Shown here piece by piece: positions 12,884-59,837 of a stretch of 64,000 nucleotides of DNA. This DNA is from Clostridiales bacterium. GTDB lineage: Bacteria > Bacillota > Clostridia > Christensenellales > CAG-314. The stretch lies in NCBI GenBank assembly GCA_022508305.1, contig JAFLVM010000001.1, positions 125,347-189,346 on the forward strand, written 5' to 3'. Position 1 is the stretch's first letter. Each line of letters starts with the position of its first letter. A program made the position numbers and the translations under genes. The notes under the pieces are model-generated. The model saw only the letters and a list, made by a program, of their open reading frames with translations, was not told the origin of the DNA and made no database searches.

Positions 12884-14178
12884 ATCTGCTTTGCGATTTC
12901 GCATCGGTAATGAAAACAATAGGCTACGTTTTGTTGGCGTTTGTAGTACTCATGGTAATGGTACTCATCCACGAAACGGGTCACTACACCGCAGGAAAGC
13001 TGTTGGGATTTCAAATAAATGAATTTGCAATCGGAATGGGTCCCAAAATTCTTTCCAAAAAGAAGAAAAACGGCGAAGTTTTTTCGCTGCGTTTGCTGCC
13101 GCTCGGCGGTTTTTGCGCATTTGAGGGGGAAAACGACGAGGTGGAAAACCCCAAGGCATTCAACAGACAAAAGCCTTGGAAACGCCTTATCGTGTTATTT
13201 TCCGGCGCCTTTTTCAACTTTGTGTCGGCTATTCTAATTGCAATTATCGTATTTTCGGCATACGGCGAAACGGTAGTAGTTGTGAACAACGTGTACGAGT
13301 ACGCTCCCGAGGCAAACTACCAACAAATACAAAGCGGTGACGTAATTTACAAGGTTAACGGTAGGCGCGTCTACATATTGGACAGCCTGAGTCGCTACTT
13401 TACCGATGATGAAATGACTTTGACAGTGCTTCGTCCTGACTGTGTAGACGAGAACGGCAACACGGTGTACGTTGAGAAAACGTTGACTAACATAACGCAA
13501 GGCACCTTTACTACTTTTACTCTTACCAAAGTTGACGGTAATTTTGCAGATGCAAACAATCGCAAATTGAAGGTTGGCGATACGGTATACAAAATAAACG
13601 ATCGGTTGATTTGTCAAGCCGACGACTGGGATGAAGGGTTGAATGCGGTTGGCGACACCTTTACGCTGACTGTGACCGACGGCGAGCATTATTACACCTA
13701 CGAGATGGCAAAAAGCTATTTTAACAGCGATATCGTTGCCGAACCGCAGGCGTATACAGGCATCGCAATGTCCATTCACTACGACAAATTCAAGTTTGGA
13801 TTTGGTGAAGTGCTGATTCGAGTCGTACCTTACTGCTGTGAAGTGGGAATGCTCGTTTTGCGTACTTTAGGAGGATTGTTAACAGGCGCGGTAGGTATTG
13901 AAAGCGTTGGTGGACCAATTACCACCATAAGCATGACTACGCAAATCGTGTCTACGGGCTTTGCAAACGTCTTGATGCTGATAGTGCTTATTTCCGTCAA
14001 CCTTGCAGTGTTCAACCTGCTGCCCGTACCTGCGCTTGACGGCTGTCAAATGGTGTTCGTCATTATCGAATGGATTGCGGGCAAACCAATCAACAGAAAG
14101 GTTCAGTCCTACATCAACGGCATAGGACTTGTAGTATTGATAGTGTTAATGTTGTTGATAGATATACTAAAACTATGA
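12877..14178 (+). CDS. rseP: RIP (site-2) zinc metalloprotease RseP/RasP
   Basis: HETGHY and NLLPVPALDG motifs with a central PDZ-like region. Confidence 0.92.
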   Translation: MLNLLCDFASVMKTIGYVLLAFVVLMVMVLIHETGHYTAGKLLGFQINEFAIGMGPKILSKKKKNGEVFSLRLLPLGGFCAFEGENDEVENPKAFNRQKPWKRLIVLFSGAFFNFVSAILIAIIVFSAYGETVVVVNNVYEYAPEANYQQIQSGDVIYKVNGRRVYILDSLSRYFTDDEMTLTVLRPDCVDENGNTVYVEKTLTNITQGTFTTFTLTKVDGNFADANNRKLKVGDTVYKINDRLICQADDWDEGLNAVGDTFTLTVTDGEHYYTYEMAKSYFNSDIVAEPQAYTGIAMSIHYDKFKFGFGEVLIRVVPYCCEVGMLVLRTLGGLLTGAVGIESVGGPITTISMTTQIVSTGFANVLMLIVLISVNLAVFNLLPVPALDGCQMVFVIIEWIAGKPINRKVQSYINGIGLVVLIVLMLLIDILKL

Positions 14179-15224
14179 GAAATCCAACCAAAGAAGTTAA
14201 AATACGCAATATTAGTATTGGCGGTAGCAATCCCATTGCCATTCAGTCAATGACCAACATGTCTGTAACGAACGTTGAGGCTACTTTGCGACAAATTGAA
14301 CAGTGTGTTGAGGCGGGCTGCGATATTATGCGCGTTGCTGTGCCCAACGCGGACGCGGCAAAGGCCTTTGCAATCGTACGAAAGCAAACGGCGACGCCTC
14401 TTGTTGCAGACATACACTTTGATTACCGCTTGGCGATTGCCGCCATTAAATCGGGAGCGGACAAAGTTCGAATAAACCCCGGCAATATGTCAATAGAGCA
14501 GTTGGACAGTGTGATAGACTGCGCAAAACTACACCGCGTACCTATTCGAATCGGCGTGAACAGCGGTTCTGTCAACAAGGACGCTCTGAAGGCCGCAAAT
14601 GGCGACAAGGTGAAAGCGCTTGCTAACAGTCTTATGCAATACGTTCGCCACTTTGAAGAGCGTAATTTCACTGATTTGGTTTTGTCGGTTAAAAGCAGCG
14701 ACGTGCGCGAAACTGTGGAAACTAACAAGTTTGTCGCTCAACTTGGCTATCCTCTGCACCTTGGAGTTACGGAAGCAGGGTTGCTCAATCAAGGCTTGGT
14801 AAAAAACTCAATTGGTATTGGCAGCTTGCTGTTGGACGGTATTGGCGACACGATTCGAGTTTCGCTAACGTCCGACCCCGTTGACGAGGTGTACGCTGCC
14901 AAAGATATTCTAACTTCGCTTGGACTGAGAAGCGGTGTGACCTTCGTGTCCTGCCCAAAGTGCGGGCGGTGCAGTATTGACCTTGAAAACGTAGCCAATG
15001 AGATTTACGACTATGTAAAAAACATTAACAAAAGCCTGAAAGTTGCTGTTATGGGCTGCGAAGTCAACGGTCCGGGTGAGTGTAGTGACGCAGACCTGGG
15101 TATGGCGGGCGCAAACGGCAGTTTCGTCTTTTTCAAAAAGGGACAAAGGTACAAAACGGTAGAGGCGGCTTCGGCTGCAAGTGAATTTAAAAAAGAAATT
15201 GATTTACTGACAAATGATAATTGA
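14175..15224 (+). CDS. ispG: 4-hydroxy-3-methylbut-2-enyl diphosphate synthase
   Basis: IGGSNPIAIQSMTN and CPKCGRC motifs. ATG 14175 overlaps the rseP stop. The track start at 14070 would lie inside rseP. Confidence 0.94.
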   Translation: MRNPTKEVKIRNISIGGSNPIAIQSMTNMSVTNVEATLRQIEQCVEAGCDIMRVAVPNADAAKAFAIVRKQTATPLVADIHFDYRLAIAAIKSGADKVRINPGNMSIEQLDSVIDCAKLHRVPIRIGVNSGSVNKDALKAANGDKVKALANSLMQYVRHFEERNFTDLVLSVKSSDVRETVETNKFVAQLGYPLHLGVTEAGLLNQGLVKNSIGIGSLLLDGIGDTIRVSLTSDPVDEVYAAKDILTSLGLRSGVTFVSCPKCGRCSIDLENVANEIYDYVKNINKSLKVAVMGCEVNGPGECSDADLGMAGANGSFVFFKKGQRYKTVEAASAASEFKKEIDLLTNDN

Positions 15225-17631: not shown

Positions 17632-18726
17632 ATGATCAGCAAAGAGTTTTTTCTCGCTCTGGACGAACTGGAAGAAGTAAAGGGTATAAGCAAGGAAAAG
17701 GTTATCGAATCACTTGAAACAGCCCTGACAATCGCCTGCAAAAAGAATTACGGCGAGGCTTCCAATATAGTGGTTAAAATTTTCCCCGAAAAAACCGCTA
17801 TTCGCGTTTACATCAGCAAGACGGTAGTGGAAAACGTTGAAACTCCGGAGAAGGAAATTTCTTTAGAGGAAGCGCGCCTTATCAAAAAATCGTATAAACT
17901 TGGCGACGAGGTGCTGACGGAAATTGATCCGCGCGGCTTTGGCAGAATTGCCGCTCAAAACGCAAGACAGGTCATCATGAACAGCTTGCATCAGGCGGAA
18001 AAGGACGTGACCTTCAGTCAATACATGGACAAGGAAAACGAGCTACTCATCGGCGTTGTGTCTCGCGTCAAGGACGACGGAACTATCTACGTTGAAATAG
18101 GCAAAAACCAAATGGAAGGCGTGCTTACAGTTCAGGAGCAAATCCCCGGTGAAAAATATCGCGCAGGCGACCGCATTAAGGTGCTTGTAAAGCGTGTCCG
18201 CGACGGCGTAGGCGGAACTCAGGTTATGCTTTCCCGCGCAAGCTTTTTGTTCATCAAGCGCCTATTCGAAAACGAAGTTCCCGAAATCCGTGCAGATATC
18301 GTTCAAATTAAGAGTATTGTTCGTGAAGCGGGCTTCCGTACCAAAATGGCAGTGTATTCTACCGACCCCGAAATTGATGCCGTTGGCGCGTGCGTAGGTA
18401 ACAAGGGCGTTCGCGTAAACGCAATTGTGTCGGAAATAGGCGGCGAAAAAATTGATATTATTCCTTGGAGCAGTGACATTTTGGACTACATTGCAAGAGC
18501 TTTGTCTCCCGCTAAGGTGCTTATCGTTCAGGCAGACGAGGAAAACAAAGAGGCTAAGGTTGTAGTTCCTGACGAAAAGCTGTCGCTTGCAATCGGCAAG
18601 GAAGGACAAAACGCTCGCCTTGCCGCAAAGCTCACAGGCTGGAAGATTGACGTTAAATCCTACACCGCAGCGATGCAAAGCGGTATGTTTGACGAAATGA
18701 ACGGATCTGACGAGGTTGACGAATAG
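17632..18726 (+). CDS. nusA: transcription termination/antitermination factor NusA
   Basis: N-terminal domain, S1 and two KH regions ([33 protein letters not shown]). Confidence 0.97.
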
Positions 18727-18983
18727 TGGCTACCAAGAAAATTCCCGAAAGAATGTGCGTTTGCTGCCGTCAGATGTTGCCCAAAAATCAGTTAATACGT
18801 ATCGTCAACACACCTGACGGAGTTGTGGTAGACTTGACGGGCAAACTGAACGGTCGTGGCGTGTATCTGTGCAAGACGAAGGCGTGCCTCAACAAAGCGC
18901 TCAAAAATAAAGGCTTTGTTAAGCAACACGGATTTTCGCTTGAGACGGTAGCGCATGAGTTGGAGAACTTAGTTGAAGAGTAA
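18726..18983 (+). CDS. ylxR: YlxR/DUF448 RNA-binding protein
   Basis: RMCVCCRQ...GRGVYLC motif. GTG start overlaps the nusA stop. Confidence 0.9.
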   Translation: MATKKIPERMCVCCRQMLPKNQLIRIVNTPDGVVVDLTGKLNGRGVYLCKTKACLNKALKNKGFVKQHGFSLETVAHELENLVEE

Positions 18984-19254
18984 AGTAGAAACTTACATAG
19001 GATTTGCGATAAAAAAAGGATCTGCGGTTTTGGGCTGTGACAGTATCAAAAGCTGCAAAAAGCATATGCAACTTTTGCTGTACACGGCTAACCTTTCCGA
19101 CAACTCTTTGTCGGTGCTCAGAGAGGTGTCCGCGCGAACAGGTTGCCAGCTTGCGCAAATCGATGAGTACGAAATCCTCAAAATGAGAAACTGTAAGGCG
19201 TTGGCTATTTGCGACAAATCGTTAGCCAATGCAATTTGTGAAAATTTGATGTAG
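18973..19254 (+). CDS. ylxQ: L7Ae-family RNA-binding protein YlxQ
   Basis: Position between ylxR and inf[14 protein letters not shown] pattern. TTG start. Confidence 0.8.
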
Positions 19255-32182: not shown

Positions 32183-32512
32183 ATGAAAGTTATAAATAGA
32201 TTTGACGAGTCGGGCAGACTTGTGTACAGCAGTGAAATTATCCGCGACATTGTGGACTGCGCTTTGGTTGAGGTTGAGGGTGTTGTAAAGTATCCCGACG
32301 ACTCTAAGCAAGCCAAAGACTCCATCAAGGTGGAGTACGTTGAGGATGAGGTGTTTATTGACGTATACGTCAAGCTTGCCTACAACGTTGAAGTCAGCGA
32401 CGTGGCGAGCAGCATTCAAAGCACGGTAAAAAACACGATAGAAAACATGACCGAGTTCAAGGTCAAGGACGTCAACGTTCACGTAATTGACGTGGAGTTT
32501 GAAGAAAACTAA
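32183..32512 (+). CDS. Asp23/Gls24-family alkaline shock protein
   Basis: Size and pattern (IIRDIVDCALVEVEGV...VNVHVIDV). Position before nusB, as for B. subtilis yqhY. Confidence 0.85.
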   Translation: MKVINRFDESGRLVYSSEIIRDIVDCALVEVEGVVKYPDDSKQAKDSIKVEYVEDEVFIDVYVKLAYNVEVSDVASSIQSTVKNTIENMTEFKVKDVNVHVIDVEFEEN

Positions 32513-34949: not shown

Positions 34950-35143
34950 ACTTAGAAGAAAAAATTGCCAAATTAGACCAACTGGCAAATGAAATAGAAG
35001 ATAGTACGTCCCTCGAGAAATCGTTGGAAATTTTTGAGCAGAGTATACAACTGGCAAACGAATGTATGACAACGCTCAACGACTGCAAGGGAAAGCTTGT
35101 AGTTTTGCAGGAAAAGGTGAGGAAAATAACCGATGAAGACTGA
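34946..35143 (+). CDS. xseB: exodeoxyribonuclease VII small subunit
   Basis: Size, LEKSLEIFEQSIQLANEC pattern, and SD AAGGAGG. Confidence 0.92.
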   Translation: MNLEEKIAKLDQLANEIEDSTSLEKSLEIFEQSIQLANECMTTLNDCKGKLVVLQEKVRKITDED

Positions 35144-35942
35144 TATTACCGTATCTTATGTAGACGAAATTTTGAGACAGTACCTGCCTAAAACTCGCGA
35201 CAAAGTGTTGCAGGCAATGGAATACAGCCTCTTTTCCGGTGGAAAGCGTTTTAGACCAATGCTACTTTTGTCCACGGCTAAAGCGGTGGGCGGACGTATA
35301 AACGACGGCGCAAAGACACTTGCTGCCGCTTTGGAATTTGTCCACACCTATTCGCTTATTCACGACGATTTGCCCTGTATGGACAACGACGATTTCCGTC
35401 GCGGCAAGCGTTCGTGCCATATGCAATTCGGCGAGGCTTCTGCAGTACTTGCAGGCGACGCTTTACTTAACCTTGCCTTTGAAACTGCATTGACGGGTCC
35501 CATGTCCAACAAGCGCTATCAGGCGGCGTGCGCGTACCTGTTCAAGATGAGCGGCATTCTCGGCTTGGTGCACGGTCAATCTCTCGATTTGTTTACGGAA
35601 ACGAGAACGGTTGAGGACGCCACGGAGCTTGCCATCAACAAAACGGGCACTCTAATCAGAGCTGCGTTAGTTTGTGGGGCGTTATGCGGTGGCGCAACGG
35701 ACGAAGAGGCCCAAATATTCGACGACATCGCTTGTAAATTGGGCGTATGTTACCAAGTTATTGATGACATTCTCGATTCGGCAAAATGCGAAAAATCATT
35801 CCTTGACATTTACACCGAGCAGGATTTAATAGACCACGTAAAGGTCTTGAACGGCGAAGTGAACGCGCTTTGTGACAAGCTTCCGTACGACTTGACCTTT
35901 ATCAAACAATTTTGCGAACAGAACCTTGCGCGTAAAAAGTAG
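35133..35942 (+). CDS. ispA: farnesyl/geranyl diphosphate synthase (polyprenyl synthetase)
   Basis: LIHDDLPCMDNDDFRRG and QVIDDILD aspartate-rich motifs. Confidence 0.93.
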   Translation: MKTDITVSYVDEILRQYLPKTRDKVLQAMEYSLFSGGKRFRPMLLLSTAKAVGGRINDGAKTLAAALEFVHTYSLIHDDLPCMDNDDFRRGKRSCHMQFGEASAVLAGDALLNLAFETALTGPMSNKRYQAACAYLFKMSGILGLVHGQSLDLFTETRTVEDATELAINKTGTLIRAALVCGALCGGATDEEAQIFDDIACKLGVCYQVIDDILDSAKCEKSFLDIYTEQDLIDHVKVLNGEVNALCDKLPYDLTFIKQFCEQNLARKK

Positions 35943-35967: not shown

Positions 35968-35996
35968 TTGCAATAATAACGGTTTTGTGCTAATAT
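35968..35996 (+). promoter_or_regulatory. sigma-A promoter in front of the large ncRNA
   Basis: TTGCAA-17 nt-TAATAT. Confidence 0.55.
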
Positions 35997-36004
35997 AATA
36001 TATG

Positions 36005-36622
36005 AGCATTTTGCTCAACAACTAAATAAAAACTTGGTGGTGCAGTATTCTAGTCAGAAGCTGACGTATTGAAGACGGGACTAAAAGACCGTCAACGAGC
36101 ACATCGATGAAGCTTCTTGTGCTTGCTTCCGTTGCCCAAACGGGGGCAGGTGCTGGGAGTTAAGAATATTGGGTAAGGCGTAATGGCATATGCTATACTC
36201 CCAATATTCGTGGAGACTCTACAGGGTGGTTGCCTAACACATAAGCAATTACTCTCTGAGGTTAAACCTGCTATGCGGTGAATAAAAAGCTGTGTACAGT
36301 GTAGCTTGTTTTGAGTGGGGTTTTGGGAGTACTGAACGCGTTTGTACCGTTGGCCTATGGTTTAGACGCGATTGCTTTACGAAATGAATTCTGCAAAAGA
36401 AACTAAAATACGACGGTTTCTGCAAAGGAAATCTTCTAGGCTGCAAATCAGGCTTGTCAGAGATTATAGTACGGACTAAGTGGCGATTCAGTTAAACACG
36501 TGGTGACACTGTTTAGACGGAATTAAAAGGAAACTGCTTCTTCGGCGACGGGGAGTTTTTGTCTGGGAAATCCTACTGAACCTATGCCGTAAGGTTTATC
36601 TGACGAGTCACCACCTTTTTTT
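36005..36622 (+). ncRNA. ole: OLE (ornate, large, extremophilic) RNA candidate
   Basis: A 0.7-kb gap with no credible ORF sits between ispA and a small basic membrane protein followed by dxs, which is the published ispA-OLE-oapA-dxs context. GGTGGTG (36036) pairs with CACCACC (36609) followed by T7. There are many internal perfect stems, e.g. GAATATTGGG (36163) / CCCAATATTC (36199). Exact ends are uncertain. Confidence 0.78.
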
Positions 36623-36648
36623 ATTACGTACAAGTTAAACGGAGATAT

Positions 36649-37302
36649 ATGAAAAATACAGATTCTGTTCCGCGACAAAACGCGGATGAAACAACGGAAG
36701 CGACACAACTACAGGAAGTTCCAAGCGAGGAGCAAGCGGTAGAGGCGAAGAAAAAGAAGGAACGCCCCATAACCAAGAAAAAGAAAAAGCGTAACCTTTG
36801 GCCTTTGAAGGCACTCGCCATAACCTTAGTGCTTGCTGCGGCAGTCAACGCCGCGTCCACAGTTGTGTTGGAGGAATTTCCTCACCTTTGGTTGGCAGCA
36901 TTGCTTACGGTGATAATCCTACTTGTTGGCGTATTATTCGATATGGTAGGTACAGCAGCAACAGCTTGCGACGAAGGTCCGTTTTTGTCCATGGCGTCAC
37001 GCAAGGTTAAGGGCGCTAAACTTGCTGTAAAACTGTCAAAGAAAAGCGACGTTGTGTCTTCGGTATGTTGCGATATCGTTGGTGACATATGCGGAATCGT
37101 ATCCGGTGTGTGCGCAGCAACGATTGCCGTATACACGCTAAATCTTAACGGCAGTTTTTGGTGGACAGTTTTAATTTACGCGCTTATTTCTACGCTTACA
37201 ATCACGCTTAAGGCTATCGGCAAGGGCATTGCAGTAAAAAAAGCCAACAGCATTATTTACGGCGTTGCAAAGATGCTAAGTATTTTCCGCAAAGAAGGAT
37301 AA
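36649..37302 (+). CDS. oapA: OLE-associated membrane protein OapA-like
   Basis: It lies immediately downstream of the ncRNA and upstream of dxs. Lys-rich tail KKKKERPITKKKKKRN followed by about 4 TM helices. Confidence 0.72.
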   Translation: MKNTDSVPRQNADETTEATQLQEVPSEEQAVEAKKKKERPITKKKKKRNLWPLKALAITLVLAAAVNAASTVVLEEFPHLWLAALLTVIILLVGVLFDMVGTAATACDEGPFLSMASRKVKGAKLAVKLSKKSDVVSSVCCDIVGDICGIVSGVCAATIAVYTLNLNGSFWWTVLIYALISTLTITLKAIGKGIAVKKANSIIYGVAKMLSIFRKEG

Positions 37303-37303
37303 C

Positions 37304-39112
37304 GTGCTCGAACAAATAAAGACAATTCAAGACCTAAAAAAACTCACCGTGCGTGAGCTGCCCGAGTTGTGCGCAGAAATCCGCCAAATGCTCATTTCCA
37401 ATGTGTTAGAAAGCGGCGGACACTTGGCAAGCAATTTGGGCGTTGTCGAACTCACAGTTGCGCTGCATTACGTATTCGACGAGCGTGACAGAATAGTGTG
37501 GGACGTAGGTCATCAAAGTTACGTACACAAAATTCTTACCTCTCGGGGTGAGAATTTTTCTTCATTACGTAGCAAAGACGGCGTCTCTGGATTCCCCGAT
37601 TGCGAAGAGGACGGGCGCGACAGTTTCAACACAGGTCACGCAGGTACGGCAATTTCCGCTGCGTTAGGACTAGCAAAGGCGCGCGACACGTTACACGATG
37701 ACTACAAGGTGATTGCTGTAGTGGGCGACGGTTCAATGACCTGCGGACTAACCTACGAAGCGTTGAACAACGTCAAGGACACCAATATGCTAATCGTGCT
37801 GAACGACAACAATATGTCCATTGGCAAGAACGTCGGTTCGGCAACGCTCAACATGTCCAAATTGCGTGTGGGCAAATACGACCGCAACAAGGAACGCTTG
37901 AAAAGGTTTTTGCTGAAAATTCCTCTTTTGGGCAAGCCTACCTACAAGTTTTTGCGTTGGTGTAAGCGAAGAGCAAAGCTCGGTTATCCACGCAACAGCT
38001 ATTTCGACAATTTTGATTTGAAATACGTGGGCATAATTGACGGTAACGAAGTAAAGGATTTGGTGTACTACCTCACGAGAATCAAAAACAACGTTACTAA
38101 GCCTACCGTACTGCAAATCGTCACAAAGAAGGGCAAAGGATACGAGCCTGCCGAGGCAGACCCCGAAACGTACCATTCCGTCAACAGAAAGGGCGCAGAG
38201 GTTGGCGCTCTCGAAAGCTCCGTAGTTGTAGGCGACACGCTTTGTAAAATTGCAAGCGAGCGCGAGGACGTCGTTGCCATCTGCGCTGCAATGGCTAAGG
38301 CGACTGGACTTGCCGCTTTCCAAAACCAATTCCCCGACCGATTTTACGACGTGGGTATTGCCGAGGAGCACGCGGTAACCTTCGCCGCAGGACTTGCCAA
38401 GGGTGGCGCAAGACCGTTCGTAGCAATTTATTCCTCTTTCCTACAACGTAGCTACGATCAAATTTTGCACGACGTAGCATTGCAAAACTTGCCCGTAACA
38501 TTTTTGATTGACAGGGCGGGCTTTGTAGGCGAGGACGGCAAGACGCACCAAGGGCTTTTCGATTTGTCCTATTTGTCGCAAATTCCTAATCTAAAGATAT
38601 GGACACCCTCGACTTACAGCGAGCTGTCTCAAATGATACAAAGTAGCCTACACGAAAATTGCCCCGTAGCAATACGTTACCCCAAGCGCTTGAGCAGTGA
38701 CAAGCGAGATTTTGTCGGTAGGTGGAACGTGCTTTCACCGTGCGACAACCCACGCCTCACCTTGCTTGCGGTTGGCGCCAATCAAACGAATACCGCTTTA
38801 CGCATTGCAGAGGCAGTACCGTCAGTGGAAGTAGTAGAGGTTACGACGGTAAAACCGCTTGACGCAAATTATCTAAATAGTATCAAAACTAACACCCAAA
38901 TTGTAACTTTGGAGGAAAACGTACTTCAAGGCGGATTTGGGCAAAGCGTAGCGGAATACATTGCAAAAAATAATAGCGGTGTACCCGTAATCAATCTTGG
39001 AGTAAACGATACCTTTGTTAAACATGCAACCGTTGAAGAGCAACTAATTGCAAATGGACTGGACTTTGACAGCCTGCTCAAAACGGTAACGGAAATTCTT
39101 TCAAACTGTTGA
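37304..39112 (+). CDS. dxs: 1-deoxy-D-xylulose-5-phosphate synthase
   Basis: GGHLASNLGVVELT, GDGSMTCG and IAEEHAVTFAAGLA motifs. GTG start. Confidence 0.96.
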   Translation: MLEQIKTIQDLKKLTVRELPELCAEIRQMLISNVLESGGHLASNLGVVELTVALHYVFDERDRIVWDVGHQSYVHKILTSRGENFSSLRSKDGVSGFPDCEEDGRDSFNTGHAGTAISAALGLAKARDTLHDDYKVIAVVGDGSMTCGLTYEALNNVKDTNMLIVLNDNNMSIGKNVGSATLNMSKLRVGKYDRNKERLKRFLLKIPLLGKPTYKFLRWCKRRAKLGYPRNSYFDNFDLKYVGIIDGNEVKDLVYYLTRIKNNVTKPTVLQIVTKKGKGYEPAEADPETYHSVNRKGAEVGALESSVVVGDTLCKIASEREDVVAICAAMAKATGLAAFQNQFPDRFYDVGIAEEHAVTFAAGLAKGGARPFVAIYSSFLQRSYDQILHDVALQNLPVTFLIDRAGFVGEDGKTHQGLFDLSYLSQIPNLKIWTPSTYSELSQMIQSSLHENCPVAIRYPKRLSSDKRDFVGRWNVLSPCDNPRLTLLAVGANQTNTALRIAEAVPSVEVVEVTTVKPLDANYLNSIKTNTQIVTLEENVLQGGFGQSVAEYIAKNNSGVPVINLGVNDTFVKHATVEEQLIANGLDFDSLLKTVTEILSNC

Positions 39113-56000: not shown

Positions 56001-56174
56001 ACTAAAATAACTTCAACTCACTCATTGGCAAACTAATTTGAAGGCGTACGAAAATTTTGGACTTGTAAAATACATCTAAACCCAGTTTTTATATTATATC
56101 TATTACATACTATTTTAACGAAAATCGTTGTCATTTTCGTTTTTTTTTGTTACAATGTAAACAATCAAATAAAA

Positions 56175-56412
56175 ACGATGACGAAGATCAAGAGTTTACG
56201 ATAAACAAAGCCACAGCGAGTGAGGGACGGTGCAAGCCTCGCCTTTGCGTAAAAAGATATTCCCTTCCGAGTTCATCGGTGAAGTAGCAGTAGCCGTTTG
56301 CGGGTAGTTTCCGTTATCAAACAAAGAGTGAAAGGTCTTTCCTTTTGAAATTAGGTGGTACCGCGGTAATTTATCGCCCTAAGTTGTTTTGCGCAACTTG
56401 GGGCGTTTTTTT
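56175..56412 (+). promoter_or_regulatory. T-box riboswitch leader (Phe) of pheST
   Basis: T-box sequence GAAATTAGGTGGTACCGCG (56347-56365). Terminator CGCCCTAAGTTG / CAACTTGGGGCG followed by T7. A UUC codon followed by A (56271-56274) is the candidate specifier. Confidence 0.88.
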
Positions 56413-56423
56413 AGGAGAAAATT

Positions 56424-57440
56424 ATGGACAAAATAGCAGAAATCAAATCGGCTTTTGACAGCGAGATTAGTCTTTGCGAAACTTTGCAGGAATTACAAGA
56501 GTTAAAGGTCAAATATTTGGGCAAGTCGGGCGAATTGACCGTTTTGCTCAAGAGCATAAAGGACCTTCCGGCAGAAGAGCGTCCAACTTTTGGCGCAAAA
56601 GTCAACGTTTTGCGCGGCGAATTGGAAAGTGAATTTTCAAAACGTTCCGAGCAGCTCAAGCAAATGGAAATGCAACGTCGCTTGCAGGAAGAACGAGTAG
56701 ACATAAGTCTGACTTCGTCGCAGCCTCTTGGAGCGCTTCACCCCGTTACGCTAATTGAAAACCAAATAAGCGAACTGTTGGTTGCAATGGGCTTTGAAGT
56801 GCTGTCAGGACCGGAAATTGAGACGGATTACTACAACTTTCAAGCGCTAAACATTCCAAGCGACCATCCCGCGCGCGATATGCAGGACACGTTCTACGTT
56901 ACCGATAGCATTTTGCTTCGTACACACACGTCGCCTATGCAAGCGCGCCACATGGAAAAGAAAAAACCACCCATCAAGATGATTTGCGTTGGCAAGGTGT
57001 TCCGCTCGGACAGCGACGCTTCGCACTCACCCGTATTTCATCAAATTGAAGGGCTTGTAGTGGACAAAAATATCACTTTGTGCGATTTGAAGGGTACGTT
57101 AGAATACATTGCGTCTAACCTGTTTGGAAAGGACACCAAGGTGCGTTTCCGTCCGTCCTTCTTCCCCTTTACGGAGCCAAGTGTTGAGGTTGACCTTTCG
57201 TGCAGCAACTGTGGCGGCAAAGGATGTTCGCTATGCAAGGGCACGGGTTGGATTGAAGTGCTTGGCGCAGGTATGGTCAACCCGTTCGTGTTGGAAAACT
57301 GCGGTATTGACAGCAAAAAGTACAACGGTTACGCTTTCGGTATAGGCGTAGAGCGTATCGCTATGATAAAGTACGGCATACCAGACATACGTCTTTTCTA
57401 CGAAAACGACCAACGCTTTTTGAAACAATTCGGTAAATAG
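56424..57440 (+). CDS. pheS: phenylalanine--tRNA ligase alpha subunit
   Basis: HPARDMQDTFY, FRSDSD and GFGIGVERI class II motifs. Confidence 0.97.
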   Translation: MDKIAEIKSAFDSEISLCETLQELQELKVKYLGKSGELTVLLKSIKDLPAEERPTFGAKVNVLRGELESEFSKRSEQLKQMEMQRRLQEERVDISLTSSQPLGALHPVTLIENQISELLVAMGFEVLSGPEIETDYYNFQALNIPSDHPARDMQDTFYVTDSILLRTHTSPMQARHMEKKKPPIKMICVGKVFRSDSDASHSPVFHQIEGLVVDKNITLCDLKGTLEYIASNLFGKDTKVRFRPSFFPFTEPSVEVDLSCSNCGGKGCSLCKGTGWIEVLGAGMVNPFVLENCGIDSKKYNGYAFGIGVERIAMIKYGIPDIRLFYENDQRFLKQFGK

Positions 57441-57452
57441 GAGCAAAATTAT

Positions 57453-59837
57453 ATGAAAATACCTCTTTCTTGGATTAGAGATTACGTTGACGTAAATGTT
57501 GACGTGCAAACTCTCTGTAACAAAATGGTGGACGTCGGCTTAGAAATAGAAGAAGTTGTCTACCTTGGTGAAAATGTTACCAACGTCAAGGTTTGCCAAA
57601 TTGTTGACATACAGCAACACCCCAACGCAGAAAGATTGCTTTGCTGCAAGGTGGACGTTGGCGGCGAAATAATACCCATTGTAACTAACGACCATCACGT
57701 AAAGGTGGGAGACAAAGTTCCCGTAGCATTGCACAACGCTAATCTTGCAAACGGACTGCACATTACAAAGGGCAAGATGCGCGGCGAGGAGTCGTGGGGA
57801 ATGTTCTGCGGATCGGAAGAACTCGGCATCAACGGCGACATGTACCCAAACGCAGATTCAGACGGCGTACTCGTTTTGTTGGAAACAGCCGTTGTAGGCG
57901 CAGATATTCGCTCGGAAGTTGGAATTGACGACTACGTTTTGGACGTAGGTGTTACAGCTAACCGTCAAGATTGCAACAGTGTGCTCGGTCTTGCGCGTGA
58001 AGTTGCCGTTGCGCTTGGCAAAACATGCCGTGAGCCAGACCTGTCATACGCAGAGGGTGAAGTTGAAACGGCAAGTCTTGTTAGCGTAGACGTCCAAGCA
58101 ACGGATATTTGTAAGGGCTACTATATGCAAGGCGTCACCGACGTAAAGATAGAAAAATCACCTTTGTGGCTTACGCAACGCCTTGCAAAGGTAGGACTGC
58201 GCGGCATAAACAACTTGGTAGACATTACAAACTACGTACTGTACGAAATCGGACAGCCCATGCATGCGTTCGACTACGCAGACATCAACGACAAGCAAAT
58301 AGTAGTGCGTAGAGCGAATGACGGCGAGAAAATAATTCCGCTTGACGGCAAAGAGTACACGCTAAACAATGACGACTTGGTAATTGCAGACAAATCCCGC
58401 GCAGTTGGTCTTGCAGGTATTATGGGCGGAGCAAATTCCGGCATAAAAGAGGAAACAAGCTGTGTGTTGTTTGAGTCCGCAACCTTTGCGCGCAAGAACG
58501 TACGTCGCACAGGACGGCGCTTAGGTCTGCGTTCCGATTCTTCGGCGCGTTTTGAAAAGGGCATTGAAACCTACACCAACAACGTAGGTTTGTCCCGCGC
58601 GCTTCATCTTGTTGAGCAACTCGGCTGTGGCAAAGTTACGCGCGGACGTATTAGTATAGGCGAGGTGGCAGGCAACAGAACGATTACTTTCGACAAGAGA
58701 CGTATTAAAAGCCTACTGGGTATTTCTATACCTGATGAGCGTATCGTTTCTATTTTGAACTCACTGAATATTAACACTACGGTACAGCAAAAAAACATTG
58801 TCACCTGCGTTGTTCCACCGTATCGCGACGATATTACGCGCGACTGCGACATTGTAGAAGAACTCATACGCGTGTACGGCTACGACAATATCAAGGGTAC
58901 GCTGATGGAAAAATCCCGTATAACCTGCGGCGGAAAGACTACTGAAGACAAGCTCATTGACGGAGTAAAGAACGTTTTGAACGGACTAAGGTACAATGAA
59001 TGCATTTTCTATCCGTTCGCAGGAAAGGCGCTCTACGAAAAGGCAAGCACGCGACCTGTTGACGATAGCCTGTATATCAAGGTGAAAAATCCTATTGGCG
59101 AAGAGCTGTCGTTGATGAACAGGAGTCTTGCGCCCAACATGCTGCAATGCGTAGCGCTCAATTTGTCACGCAGCAACAAAAATCTTAGGTTGTTCGAGGT
59201 TGGCAAAGCTTATCTTGCCGACAATCTTCCCCTTGAGACGTTGCCGATTGAGCAAAAACGTTTGTCCGTTTGCGCAACAGAAGTTACCTTCGAAGAATTC
59301 CGAAACGACCTACTGCAGGTTTTGAGGAGCGTAGCTATTGGCAAAGTAAAACTTGTGCGCCCCGATTCGGACGTCTTGCATCCGGGAATTTCCGCTGACG
59401 TGTTTGTAGAAGGAGTGGACGTCGGTCACTTCGGCAAATTGCATCCGCAGGTCGCTGCAAACTTTGAAATTGAGGCGGATTGCTACTACGCAGAACTGTA
59501 CCTTGACAAACTCTTTGAGCTTGCGCGCGGCGAAATCAAATACCAACCCTTTGCCAAATTCCCATCAGTGAGTCGTGACTTTGCATTTTTGTGTGAAGAA
59601 GAAGTTGCGGCGCAGGATGTGTTGGATGAATTTCTGTCCTTGCCACTGGTTGAAAGCGCAGAGTTATTCGACGTATACCGTGACGACAAACTTGGAACAG
59701 GCAAAAAAAGCCTTGCAGTCAACGTAGTATTCAGAGACAGAAACAAGACGCTGCAAGATGCTGACATAGAAAAACAAGCAGGTAAAGCGTTACGCAATCT
59801 GAAAGAAAAGTACAACGTTTCATTGCGCGAGCAATAG
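57453..59837 (+). CDS. pheT: phenylalanine--tRNA ligase beta subunit
   Basis: MKIPLSWIRDYV N-terminus, B3/4, B5 and FDX-ACB regions, and size. Confidence 0.97.
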   Translation: MKIPLSWIRDYVDVNVDVQTLCNKMVDVGLEIEEVVYLGENVTNVKVCQIVDIQQHPNAERLLCCKVDVGGEIIPIVTNDHHVKVGDKVPVALHNANLANGLHITKGKMRGEESWGMFCGSEELGINGDMYPNADSDGVLVLLETAVVGADIRSEVGIDDYVLDVGVTANRQDCNSVLGLAREVAVALGKTCREPDLSYAEGEVETASLVSVDVQATDICKGYYMQGVTDVKIEKSPLWLTQRLAKVGLRGINNLVDITNYVLYEIGQPMHAFDYADINDKQIVVRRANDGEKIIPLDGKEYTLNNDDLVIADKSRAVGLAGIMGGANSGIKEETSCVLFESATFARKNVRRTGRRLGLRSDSSARFEKGIETYTNNVGLSRALHLVEQLGCGKVTRGRISIGEVAGNRTITFDKRRIKSLLGISIPDERIVSILNSLNINTTVQQKNIVTCVVPPYRDDITRDCDIVEELIRVYGYDNIKGTLMEKSRITCGGKTTEDKLIDGVKNVLNGLRYNECIFYPFAGKALYEKASTRPVDDSLYIKVKNPIGEELSLMNRSLAPNMLQCVALNLSRSNKNLRLFEVGKAYLADNLPLETLPIEQKRLSVCATEVTFEEFRNDLLQVLRSVAIGKVKLVRPDSDVLHPGISADVFVEGVDVGHFGKLHPQVAANFEIEADCYYAELYLDKLFELARGEIKYQPFAKFPSVSRDFAFLCEEEVAAQDVLDEFLSLPLVESAELFDVYRDDKLGTGKKSLAVNVVFRDRNKTLQDADIEKQAGKALRNLKEKYNVSLREQ

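Follow-up and report, generated by a model that had tools for sequence, protein, structure and literature searches.

OLE (ornate, large, extremophilic) RNAs have been described in Bacillota hosts that are typically anaerobic or extremophilic, where they are associated with clusters of isoprenoid, DNA-repair, translation and sporulation genes (PMC12265935). About 2,800 members are already catalogued in Bacillota, uncultured gut lineages among them, and Fernando and Breaker (2024) divide them into three types: full-length RNAs; variant 1, with short P7–P9 and often no OapB site; and variant 2, which has no P7 and P8 (PMC11332333). In the published model, a P1 stem lies at the 5′ end of the RNA, and the OLE RNA of B. 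halodurans has been demonstrated to possess its own proximal promoter (PMC3413148). For OapA, palindromic contact sites in or near P2 and P4a have been described, and the joining region J4a/5 is an OapA contact region (PMC12265935). J4a/5 is the kink-turn strand bound by OapC (PMC9723947, PMC12286853), and J6/7 supplies the second such strand in the cryo-EM model (PMC12286853). The OapB site is defined by a P13 hairpin with a GNRA tetraloop and a single-nucleotide bulge, next to P12.2 (Yang et al., PMC7936274). An A–A bridge in loop L4 has been described for the OLE homodimer, and the self-complementary loop L9.3 forms a kissing loop, dimer bridge B3 (PMC12286853).

ROOL, GOLLD and the raiA motif resemble the RNA described here in being large, highly structured non-coding RNAs, but their sequence, fold and gene context are unrelated to it. 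ROOL and GOLLD form homo-oligomers.

The window (the whole stretch of DNA analysed, 64 kb in length) almost certainly contains the gene for a full-length OLE RNA at positions 36003–36622 of the + strand and, at 36649–37302, oapA, the gene for its membrane-protein partner. We found no evidence contrary to membership of the OLE family, and the locus is an ordinary full-length member of an already known RNA class, detectable by a standard Rfam scan. Family membership, the fold, the conserved binding and dimerisation motifs and the ole–oapA–dxs arrangement are all directly observed. Like the full-length OLE RNAs of H. halodurans and C. acetobutylicum, the RNA is about 610 nt long, matches the covariance model from end to end and has the same helices and joining regions. 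The predicted OapB site, the J4a/5 and J6/7 strands, the L4 and palindromic L9.3 loops and a proximal promoter are likewise shared, and oapA lies immediately downstream, in a cluster of isoprenoid, DNA-repair and sporulation genes.

The locus differs from the studied OLE RNAs in having a leader of about 33 nt, with a clade-specific 5′ hairpin, before the first conserved helix, and in the absence of a small hairpin at Rfam model positions 424–435. Its host is also different, being an uncultured, probably animal-associated spore-former and not a cultured extremophile. Uncultured Bacillota hosts known from metagenomes, animal-gut ones included, are a feature that it shares with variant 1 (TANB77-type) and variant 2 (RF39-type). 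However, P7, P8 and P9 are at full length and the predicted OapB site is intact, and the RNA therefore belongs to neither variant.

Family assignment and gene neighbourhood

35133–35942, + strand: ispA-type farnesyl diphosphate synthase gene, the upstream neighbour (PF00348, NF045485)
36021–36630, + strand: OLE RNA (RF01071), full-length Rfam match; likely transcript about 36003–36622 (predicted)
36649–37302, + strand: oapA, encoding a basic membrane protein of 217 aa with a pI of 9.4; ribosome-binding site GGAG at 36640–36643
37304–39112, + strand: dxs (TIGR00204, 608 bits)

The initial annotation, made from the sequence alone, had proposed an OLE RNA between ispA and dxs together with its OapA partner. 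A scan of the complete window with the Rfam 15 models, cut at their gathering thresholds, returned two matches, one of which is the expected one: RF01071 aligns to 36021–36630 (+ strand) with 451.2 bits (E 3.2e-129; gathering score, 50 bits) and covers model positions 1–616 of 616. The matched sequence, 610 nt in length, is identical to the Rfam consensus at 213 of the 249 upper-case (highly conserved) positions. ROOL, GOLLD and the raiA motif have no Rfam match within the window.

The ispA stop (35942) and the ATG of the next gene (36649) are separated by a gap of 706 bp, which contains, as had been noted, no credible open reading frame; the only ones found in it are two mechanical minus-strand frames of 61–65 aa. 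Gene callers also left a stretch of about 700 nt empty on the related contigs ERZ27293309 and ERZ27293310, and the OLE call therefore fills an annotation gap. Both are ENA metagenome contigs: ERZ27293309, an independent assembly, carries an identical RNA (620/620) and the exact OapA protein, and ERZ27293310 carries a 94%-identical RNA in the same gene order.

Pfam and NCBIfam searches bear out the gene order that had been read from the sequence, nusB–folD–xseA–xseB–ispA–RNA–217-aa membrane protein–dxs–argR–recN, and the wider context includes spoIIIA genes and a gene of the Asp23 family upstream of nusB, with spoIVB after recN. The ole gene of this clostridial (Bacillota) host lies among isoprenoid, DNA-repair, translation and sporulation genes. 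Because dxs starts one base after the oapA stop, the two genes are assigned to the same operon. The exact OLE gene order is reportedly given by Puerta-Fernandez et al. (2006); our literature search for explicit ispA or dxs wording together with OLE returned unrelated papers only.

Genes for the other OLE-associated proteins, oapB (KOW/ybzG) and oapC (L7Ae/ybxF), were sought among ten small open reading frames of the 64-kb window, none of which matches (0/10). For the 93-aa frame at 18973–19254, in the ylxQ slot, searches of Pfam and NCBIfam and for PDB similarity found no match. Elsewhere in the window, a 384-aa frame at 14070–15224 overlaps its upstream gene and is probably ispG, judging by gene order.

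Helices and motifs of the RNA across relatives

Relatives were found with the 217-aa protein in one genome per GTDB species, which gave 16 loci at 39–75% protein identity. All 16 are in metagenome-assembled genomes (MAGs), drawn from rabbit-derived and other MAG sets and labelled mostly as Clostridia, Clostridiales or Oscillospiraceae, and the host is probably an animal-associated lineage of uncultured spore-forming Clostridia. An OLE match of 250–464 bits lies directly upstream of the protein gene in each of the 16 loci. The resulting 17 RNAs (the window and 16 relatives) were aligned with MAFFT, and the Rfam structure was transferred through the window row.

The covariation analysis that had been suggested as a check supports the Rfam fold: 87.8% of cells are in standard pairs, versus 41–47% for slid structures, in which the 3′ partners were moved by 1–3 columns. 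Compensatory changes, on both sides of the pair, are found in 63 of the 154 Rfam model pairs in the 17-sequence alignment, and the observed values were reached in none of 500 column shuffles. The single weak helix (45% paired) is in the indel-rich distal P9, where the MAFFT alignment is unreliable. In the window itself, 13 of the model's 154 pairs are non-standard, and most of these fall at positions where the clade as a whole departs from standard pairing. The dense secondary-structure potential described for the region is also evident from folding energy (36003–36622; minimum free energy (MFE) −206.9 kcal/mol, z = −4.98 versus shuffles), and the thermodynamic fold alone recovers the terminal helix, a 16-bp long-range helix and most other stems.

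36036–36042, + strand: GGUGGUG, the 5′ half of the terminal helix, whose partner is CACCACC at 36609–36615; probably the published P1
36043–36053, + strand: CAGU and CUAG (the latter at 36050–36053), pairing with 36440–36443 and 36436–36439
36055–36070, + strand: 5′ strand of the 16-bp long-range helix, pairing with 36407–36422; formed in the MFE fold

All three long-range pairings that we tested, the 16-bp helix, CAGU/CUAG and the terminal helix, are left unpaired in the Rfam structure line. In the 16-bp helix, compensatory changes affect 10 of the 16 pairs, and the share of paired cells is 90.8%, compared with 31–49% in slid controls; it is probably the published elongated P3/P3.1. The bases of a local hairpin proposed earlier, GTCAG-AAG-CTGAC (36053–36065), are those of the covarying 5′ strand of this helix. 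The hairpin is present as sequence and is not a conserved fold: we rejected it as a conserved element, as it has no compensatory pairs and 8 of 15 relatives cannot form one of its pairs. The CAGU/CUAG pairings are 100% paired yet invariant, and therefore carry no covariation information. Judged by sequence, the palindromes CUAG (36050–36053) and CAUCGAUG (36102–36109) would match the described OapA contact regions near P2 and P4a, CUAG being probably one of the two published regions.

The ends of the RNA had been predicted to pair. The sequences are as described (GGTGGTG at 36036–36042 and CACCACC at 36609–36615, followed by exactly seven T at 36616–36622), pairing holds in 99% of cells, five of the pairs never vary and the helix also appears in the MFE fold. 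Two pairs vary one-sidedly (U-A to U-G and G-C to G-U), and one relative is without a standard innermost pair. The pairing is consistent with the data but unproven, because it is absent from the Rfam structure line, and its conservation is too high to reveal covariation.

36074–36093, + strand: P4 hairpin, from the Rfam alignment (stem 36074–36079/36088–36093), with the loop ACUAAAAG (L4, published dimer bridge B1)
36102–36112, + strand: J4a/5, with the palindrome CAUCGAUG (36102–36109) and GAUGAAG (36106–36112); matches the highly conserved Rfam consensus GCACAUCGAUGAAG
36113–36159, + strand: P5/P5.1 helix, 20 pairs, 95.9% paired, 4 compensatory
36164–36209, + strand: P6, a 10-bp stem and an inner hairpin (36178–36193), 94–100% paired, 6 pairs compensatory
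36210–36217, + strand: J6/7, GUGGAGAC, nearly invariant in the clade
36217–36260 and 36268–36299, + strand: P7 (17 pairs, 9 compensatory) and P8 (13 pairs), both full length
36308–36403, + strand: P9 arm, with compensatory changes in its helices; terminal loop UUGGCC, with GGCC at 36352–36355 (L9.3)

Other elements singled out in the initial annotation fall within the P4–P9 domain. The GACGG...CCGTC hairpin is P4, and its loop motif, CUAAAAG, is conserved across the clade. The perfect 10-bp stem GAATATTGGG/CCCAATATTC is real and corresponds to OLE helix P6, but its position is 36164–36173/36200–36209, one base to the right of where it had been placed. Checked as sequence motifs alone, the kink-turn strands for OapC are present: GAUGAAG, UUAAG (J5/6, 36160–36164) and GUGGAGAC. 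Apart from a 3-nt deletion, P7, P8 and P9 are aligned along the full length of the model. A feature of P8 that is unlike studied OLE RNAs is the invariance of its paired stem columns across the clade, in 17 of 17 sequences and with two non-standard positions included; the loop and the innermost pair vary. At L9.3, GGCC is kept in 16 of the 17 sequences, and the remaining one (L014) has GCGC, likewise a palindrome.

36451–36609, + strand: 3′ domain (published domain 2), with outer helices 36451–36461/36599–36609 and 36470–36474/36587–36591, and P12.2 at 36487–36492/36575–36580
36494–36514, + strand: P13, AAACA-C-GUG[GUGA]CAC-UGUUU, with a GUGA loop and a single bulged C (C36499), on P12.2

The helices of the 3′ domain are 95–100% paired, with 25 compensatory pairs, and the domain includes P14 together with P14.1, the latter closed by a GCGA loop (36545–36548). 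The P13 loop is of the GNRA type in 16 of the 17 sequences (GUGA, GCGA, GCAA or GUAA). The predicted OapB site, among whose features is the GCGA loop of P14.1, is intact in the RNA of the window.

The membrane protein OapA

The small basic membrane protein encoded downstream of the RNA had been taken to be OapA. In agreement with this, it has four hydrophobic segments and a DxxxD motif, and in all 16 related loci its gene comes directly after OLE. The hydropathy segments span residues ~50–75, 72–108, 135–166 and 172–191, and the AlphaFold model has long helices at 51–76, 80–106, 123–163 and 170–197; a lysine-rich stretch is located at residues 34–48. The motif is DIVGD, at residues 142–146, and both D142 and D146 are invariant in 40 homologues. 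The published H. halodurans OapA also has four membrane helices, a DxxxD motif and a likeness to CNNM proteins, its top structural match being CorB (7M1U).

Pfam and NCBIfam searches with the 217-aa protein gave no family above threshold and no CBS or CorC domain, and a search of PDB sequences gave only chance matches to U2AF. Below threshold, the CNNM family PF01595 matches with 17.4 bits (E 0.0038), under its cutoff of 28.4 bits. The best six PDB matches obtained with Foldseek are all CNNM/CorB/CorC membrane domains (7M1T, 7M1U, 7CFG and 7CFF); they are weak (E 0.02–0.25, TM 0.30–0.46) and come from an AlphaFold model with a pLDDT of 67. NCBI names two of the homologues 'Mg2+ and Co2+ transporter CorB'. 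With no family above threshold and no PDB sequence match, the assignment to OapA is thus based on the membrane topology, the DxxxD motif, a weak resemblance to CNNM and the strict adjacency to OLE.

The protein may be comparable to MpfA, CorB and CorC in its weak CNNM sequence match and in its best structural matches, CorB and CorC, which have weak scores. However, it differs from these proteins in its size of only 217 aa, in having no CBS or CorC domains, in its four membrane helices instead of three, in its DxxxD motif and in being always paired with ole.

Transcription, the 3′ end and proposed function

35968–35996, + strand: ole promoter, with −35 TTGCAA (35968–35973), a 17-nt spacer, TG (35988–35989) and −10 TAATAT (35991–35996)
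36003–36017, + strand: 5′ leader hairpin UGAGCA-UUU-UGCUCA, from the MFE fold, immediately past the predicted start and not covered by the Rfam model
36616–36622, + strand: U7 tract, directly after the terminal helix, of putative function

A sigma-A promoter, TTGCAA-17-TAATAT, had been proposed upstream of the RNA. Its elements are present and conserved in position and sequence, but they agree with the consensus at 8 of 12 positions, and a consensus promoter scan made no call at this site. We retain the promoter despite the failed scan because it is phylogenetically conserved: the block TTGCA(A/T)-17-TGnTA(T/C/A)AAT occurs at the same position upstream of OLE in most of 14 aligned relatives, and a strict search for TGnTAnnnT confirmed it in 11 loci, the window counted. 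The leader hairpin, which may act as a 5′ stabiliser, is found at the same place, with differing stem sequences, in nine relatives and the window.

At the other end of the RNA, the U7 tract may be a partial terminator or a 3′-end determinant; a run of at least five T directly follows CACCACC in 12 of the 17 sequences. A canonical intrinsic terminator was considered and rejected: a terminator scan called none at 36609–36622, and the helix that precedes the tract is a long-range pairing of the RNA ends. With the oapA start 27 nt past U7 and dxs 1 nt past the oapA stop, oapA and dxs must thus be expressed by read-through, either from the ole promoter or from the nusB–ispA operon.

This arrangement invites an explanation in which the RNA has no role in trans and is a cis-acting leader or attenuator, its terminal helix and U7 forming a conditional terminator that sets the level of oapA–dxs mRNA. 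The 27 nt between U7 and the oapA start codon, which are too few for another promoter, the coupling of dxs to oapA, the T run directly after CACCACC in 12 of 17 sequences and the MFE fold, in which the U tract follows immediately on the terminal helix, are all in its favour. We nevertheless consider a purely cis-acting element very improbable. The OLE RNA of H. halodurans is stable, abundant and trans-acting, running as a single band and having a half-life of about 3 h (PMC3413148), and an attenuator would need far less than the roughly 600 nt of conserved and covarying structure, with its motifs for protein binding and dimerisation, seen here; moreover, the scan called no terminator, and four relatives without an adjacent T run still keep the RNA. 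A role as partial terminator could exist alongside a role in trans.

The possibility that the locus is a decaying, non-functional OLE relic in a host-associated genome is fainter still. It would be in keeping with the uncultured, animal-associated clostridial hosts, with the reduced OLE variants known from gut lineages (PMC11332333), with the 13 of 154 model pairs that are non-standard in the window and with the absence of one small Rfam-model hairpin clade-wide. However, the match is full length, with P7–P9 and the predicted OapB site intact, the oapA reading frame is intact with invariant motifs, the promoter is conserved, and the compensatory changes, across relatives with OapA proteins only 39–75% identical, show continuing selection on pairing. 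Practically nil is the probability of a pseudogenised coding remnant, a counter-reading raised at the outset, or of a chance structure-rich spacer, in favour of which nothing further than the absence of an annotated gene can be cited. Each of the six frames of the gap contains 11–15 stops, the variable alignment columns are distributed 99/94/92 over the three phases (p = 0.80), without three-base periodicity, and the majority of indels in the RNA alignment are not multiples of three. This absence of a coding signal and the covariance-model match (E 3e-129) refute a remnant or chance spacer.

Returning to the reading that we favour, a full-length OLE RNA with OapA as its partner, the following course of events can be proposed. 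Transcription would begin at the conserved extended −10 promoter, about 30 nt upstream of the first conserved helix, and the transcript would have the small 5′ hairpin at its start and then adopt the canonical OLE architecture, made up of the terminal helix joining its ends, the long P3-type helix, the P4–P9 domain and the P12–P15 domain. By analogy with the OLE family, from which dimerisation, membrane localisation, protein binding and physiology are all extrapolated, the RNA would then assemble into a particle. It would dimerise through the L4 and L9.3 loops, as expected from homology with the OLE RNAs of Halalkalibacterium halodurans and Clostridium acetobutylicum; OapA dimers, bound to the palindromes CUAG and CAUCGAUG, would keep the RNA at the cell membrane. 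OapB would be recruited by the GNRA hairpin of P13, and OapC, a protein of the L7Ae type, by the kink turn at J4a/5. Such a particle would help the cell to withstand stresses, among them alcohols, cold, an excess of Mg2+ and poor sources of carbon, acting probably with the CNNM-like OapA on divalent-ion handling.

It is also conceivable, because the GGUGGUG/CACCACC helix closes a 570-nt RNA directly before U7 and oapA starts 27 nt further on, that folding of the OLE RNA itself constitutes a leaky, folding-dependent terminator, which would set how much abundant OLE RNA is made relative to the scarce oapA–dxs mRNA. We regard such a terminator as unlikely. In that case, the clade-specific 5′ hairpin would add to the stability of the transcript, and the assembly state of the RNA would be linked to the expression of OapA, its partner, and of the enzyme that opens isoprenoid synthesis.

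The locus leaves existing knowledge of OLE RNA unchanged and, because its host is uncultured, makes the chemical role of the RNA no more testable. With it, the OLE family gains a well-sampled clade of spore-forming, uncultured Clostridia. Compensatory changes within this clade provide independent support for helices already published, the long P3-type helix among them, and for the palindromic dimer loop L9.3, and the proximal promoter known from H. halodurans is also conserved in this distant lineage.

Conservation of P8 and a missing small hairpin

In the alignment of the window OLE RNA with 16 related OLE RNAs found via OapA, the paired stem columns of helix P8 (window 36268-36299) are identical in 17/17 sequences, and variation is confined to the loop and the innermost pair. 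The stem, which is variable in the Rfam consensus, is invariant in the window's clade, and it includes two non-standard positions (36271-72 opposite 36295-96). By contrast, OapA identity falls to 39% among the same relatives. Sequence comparison suggests an additional constraint acting on P8 in this clade. The Rfam consensus also has a small 4-bp hairpin (model positions 424-435) after the P10-like hairpin and ahead of the 3' domain, whereas the window (36444-36450) does not; all close relatives lack it too, and read CUGCAAUUCAGGC or a near variant there.

The 5' leader and the J4a/5 strand

A further structural element, which is not part of the Rfam OLE model, lies upstream:

36003-36017, + strand: small 5' hairpin, downstream of the ole promoter and ahead of the first conserved OLE helix

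A hairpin occupies the equivalent position in nine related ole-oapA loci (L002-L006, L008, L009, L011 and L013). Because its stem sequence varies from relative to relative, the pairing is maintained through compensating changes. The conserved motif ACAACUAAAUAAAA follows on its 3' side. The hairpin may serve as a stabiliser of the RNA 5' end.

In J4a/5, the OapC kink-turn strand, the palindrome CAUCGAUG is highly conserved except in six relatives (L003 and L005-L009), where it reads CAACGAUG (columns equivalent to window 36104). The altered base corresponds to U84 of Bacillus halodurans OLE, in which the U84A mutation weakens OapC binding in vitro. Neither J5/6 nor J6/7 shows a clear compensating change.

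Neighbouring genes and a T-box leader

Three further features of the window were noted:

18973-19254, + strand: 93-aa ORF, between ylxR (18726-18983) and infB
32183-32512, + strand: Asp23-family gene (PF03780), between the spoIIIA operon and nusB
56169-56384, + strand: T-box leader (RF00230), score 100.4 bits (threshold 93)

The slot between ylxR and infB is usually occupied by ylxQ, an L7Ae-family gene. The 93-aa ORF found there resembles nothing in Pfam, NCBIfam or the PDB sequences at a detectable level; its product might be a kink-turn-binding protein that has diverged strongly and bears on OapC, or the ORF may not be a real gene. The Asp23-family gene is probably yqhY-like, and published work lists yqhY as one of the genes commonest near ole. 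Just downstream of the T-box leader are two ORFs of 338 aa (56424-57440) and 794 aa (57453-59837), whose sizes and order suggest putative pheS and pheT, respectively.

Labelling and annotation of ole loci

A Clostridia-type ole-oapA pair was also observed in two MAGs labelled 'Corallococcus sp.' (L011, JAMPAB010000010.1, 464 bits; L016, JAMPEJ010000005.1, 442 bits). Corallococcus is a myxobacterial genus, and these MAGs are probably mislabelled or mis-binned. They can be likened to the few non-Bacillota OLE matches discussed by Fernando and Breaker.

On two related ENA metagenome contigs, gene callers placed no gene in the ~700 nt between ispA and oapA (L017, 5301-6001; L018, 2294-3001). Since this stretch is blank on both, the OLE RNA has been missed there by protein-centred annotation, as the initial annotation had claimed it would be.
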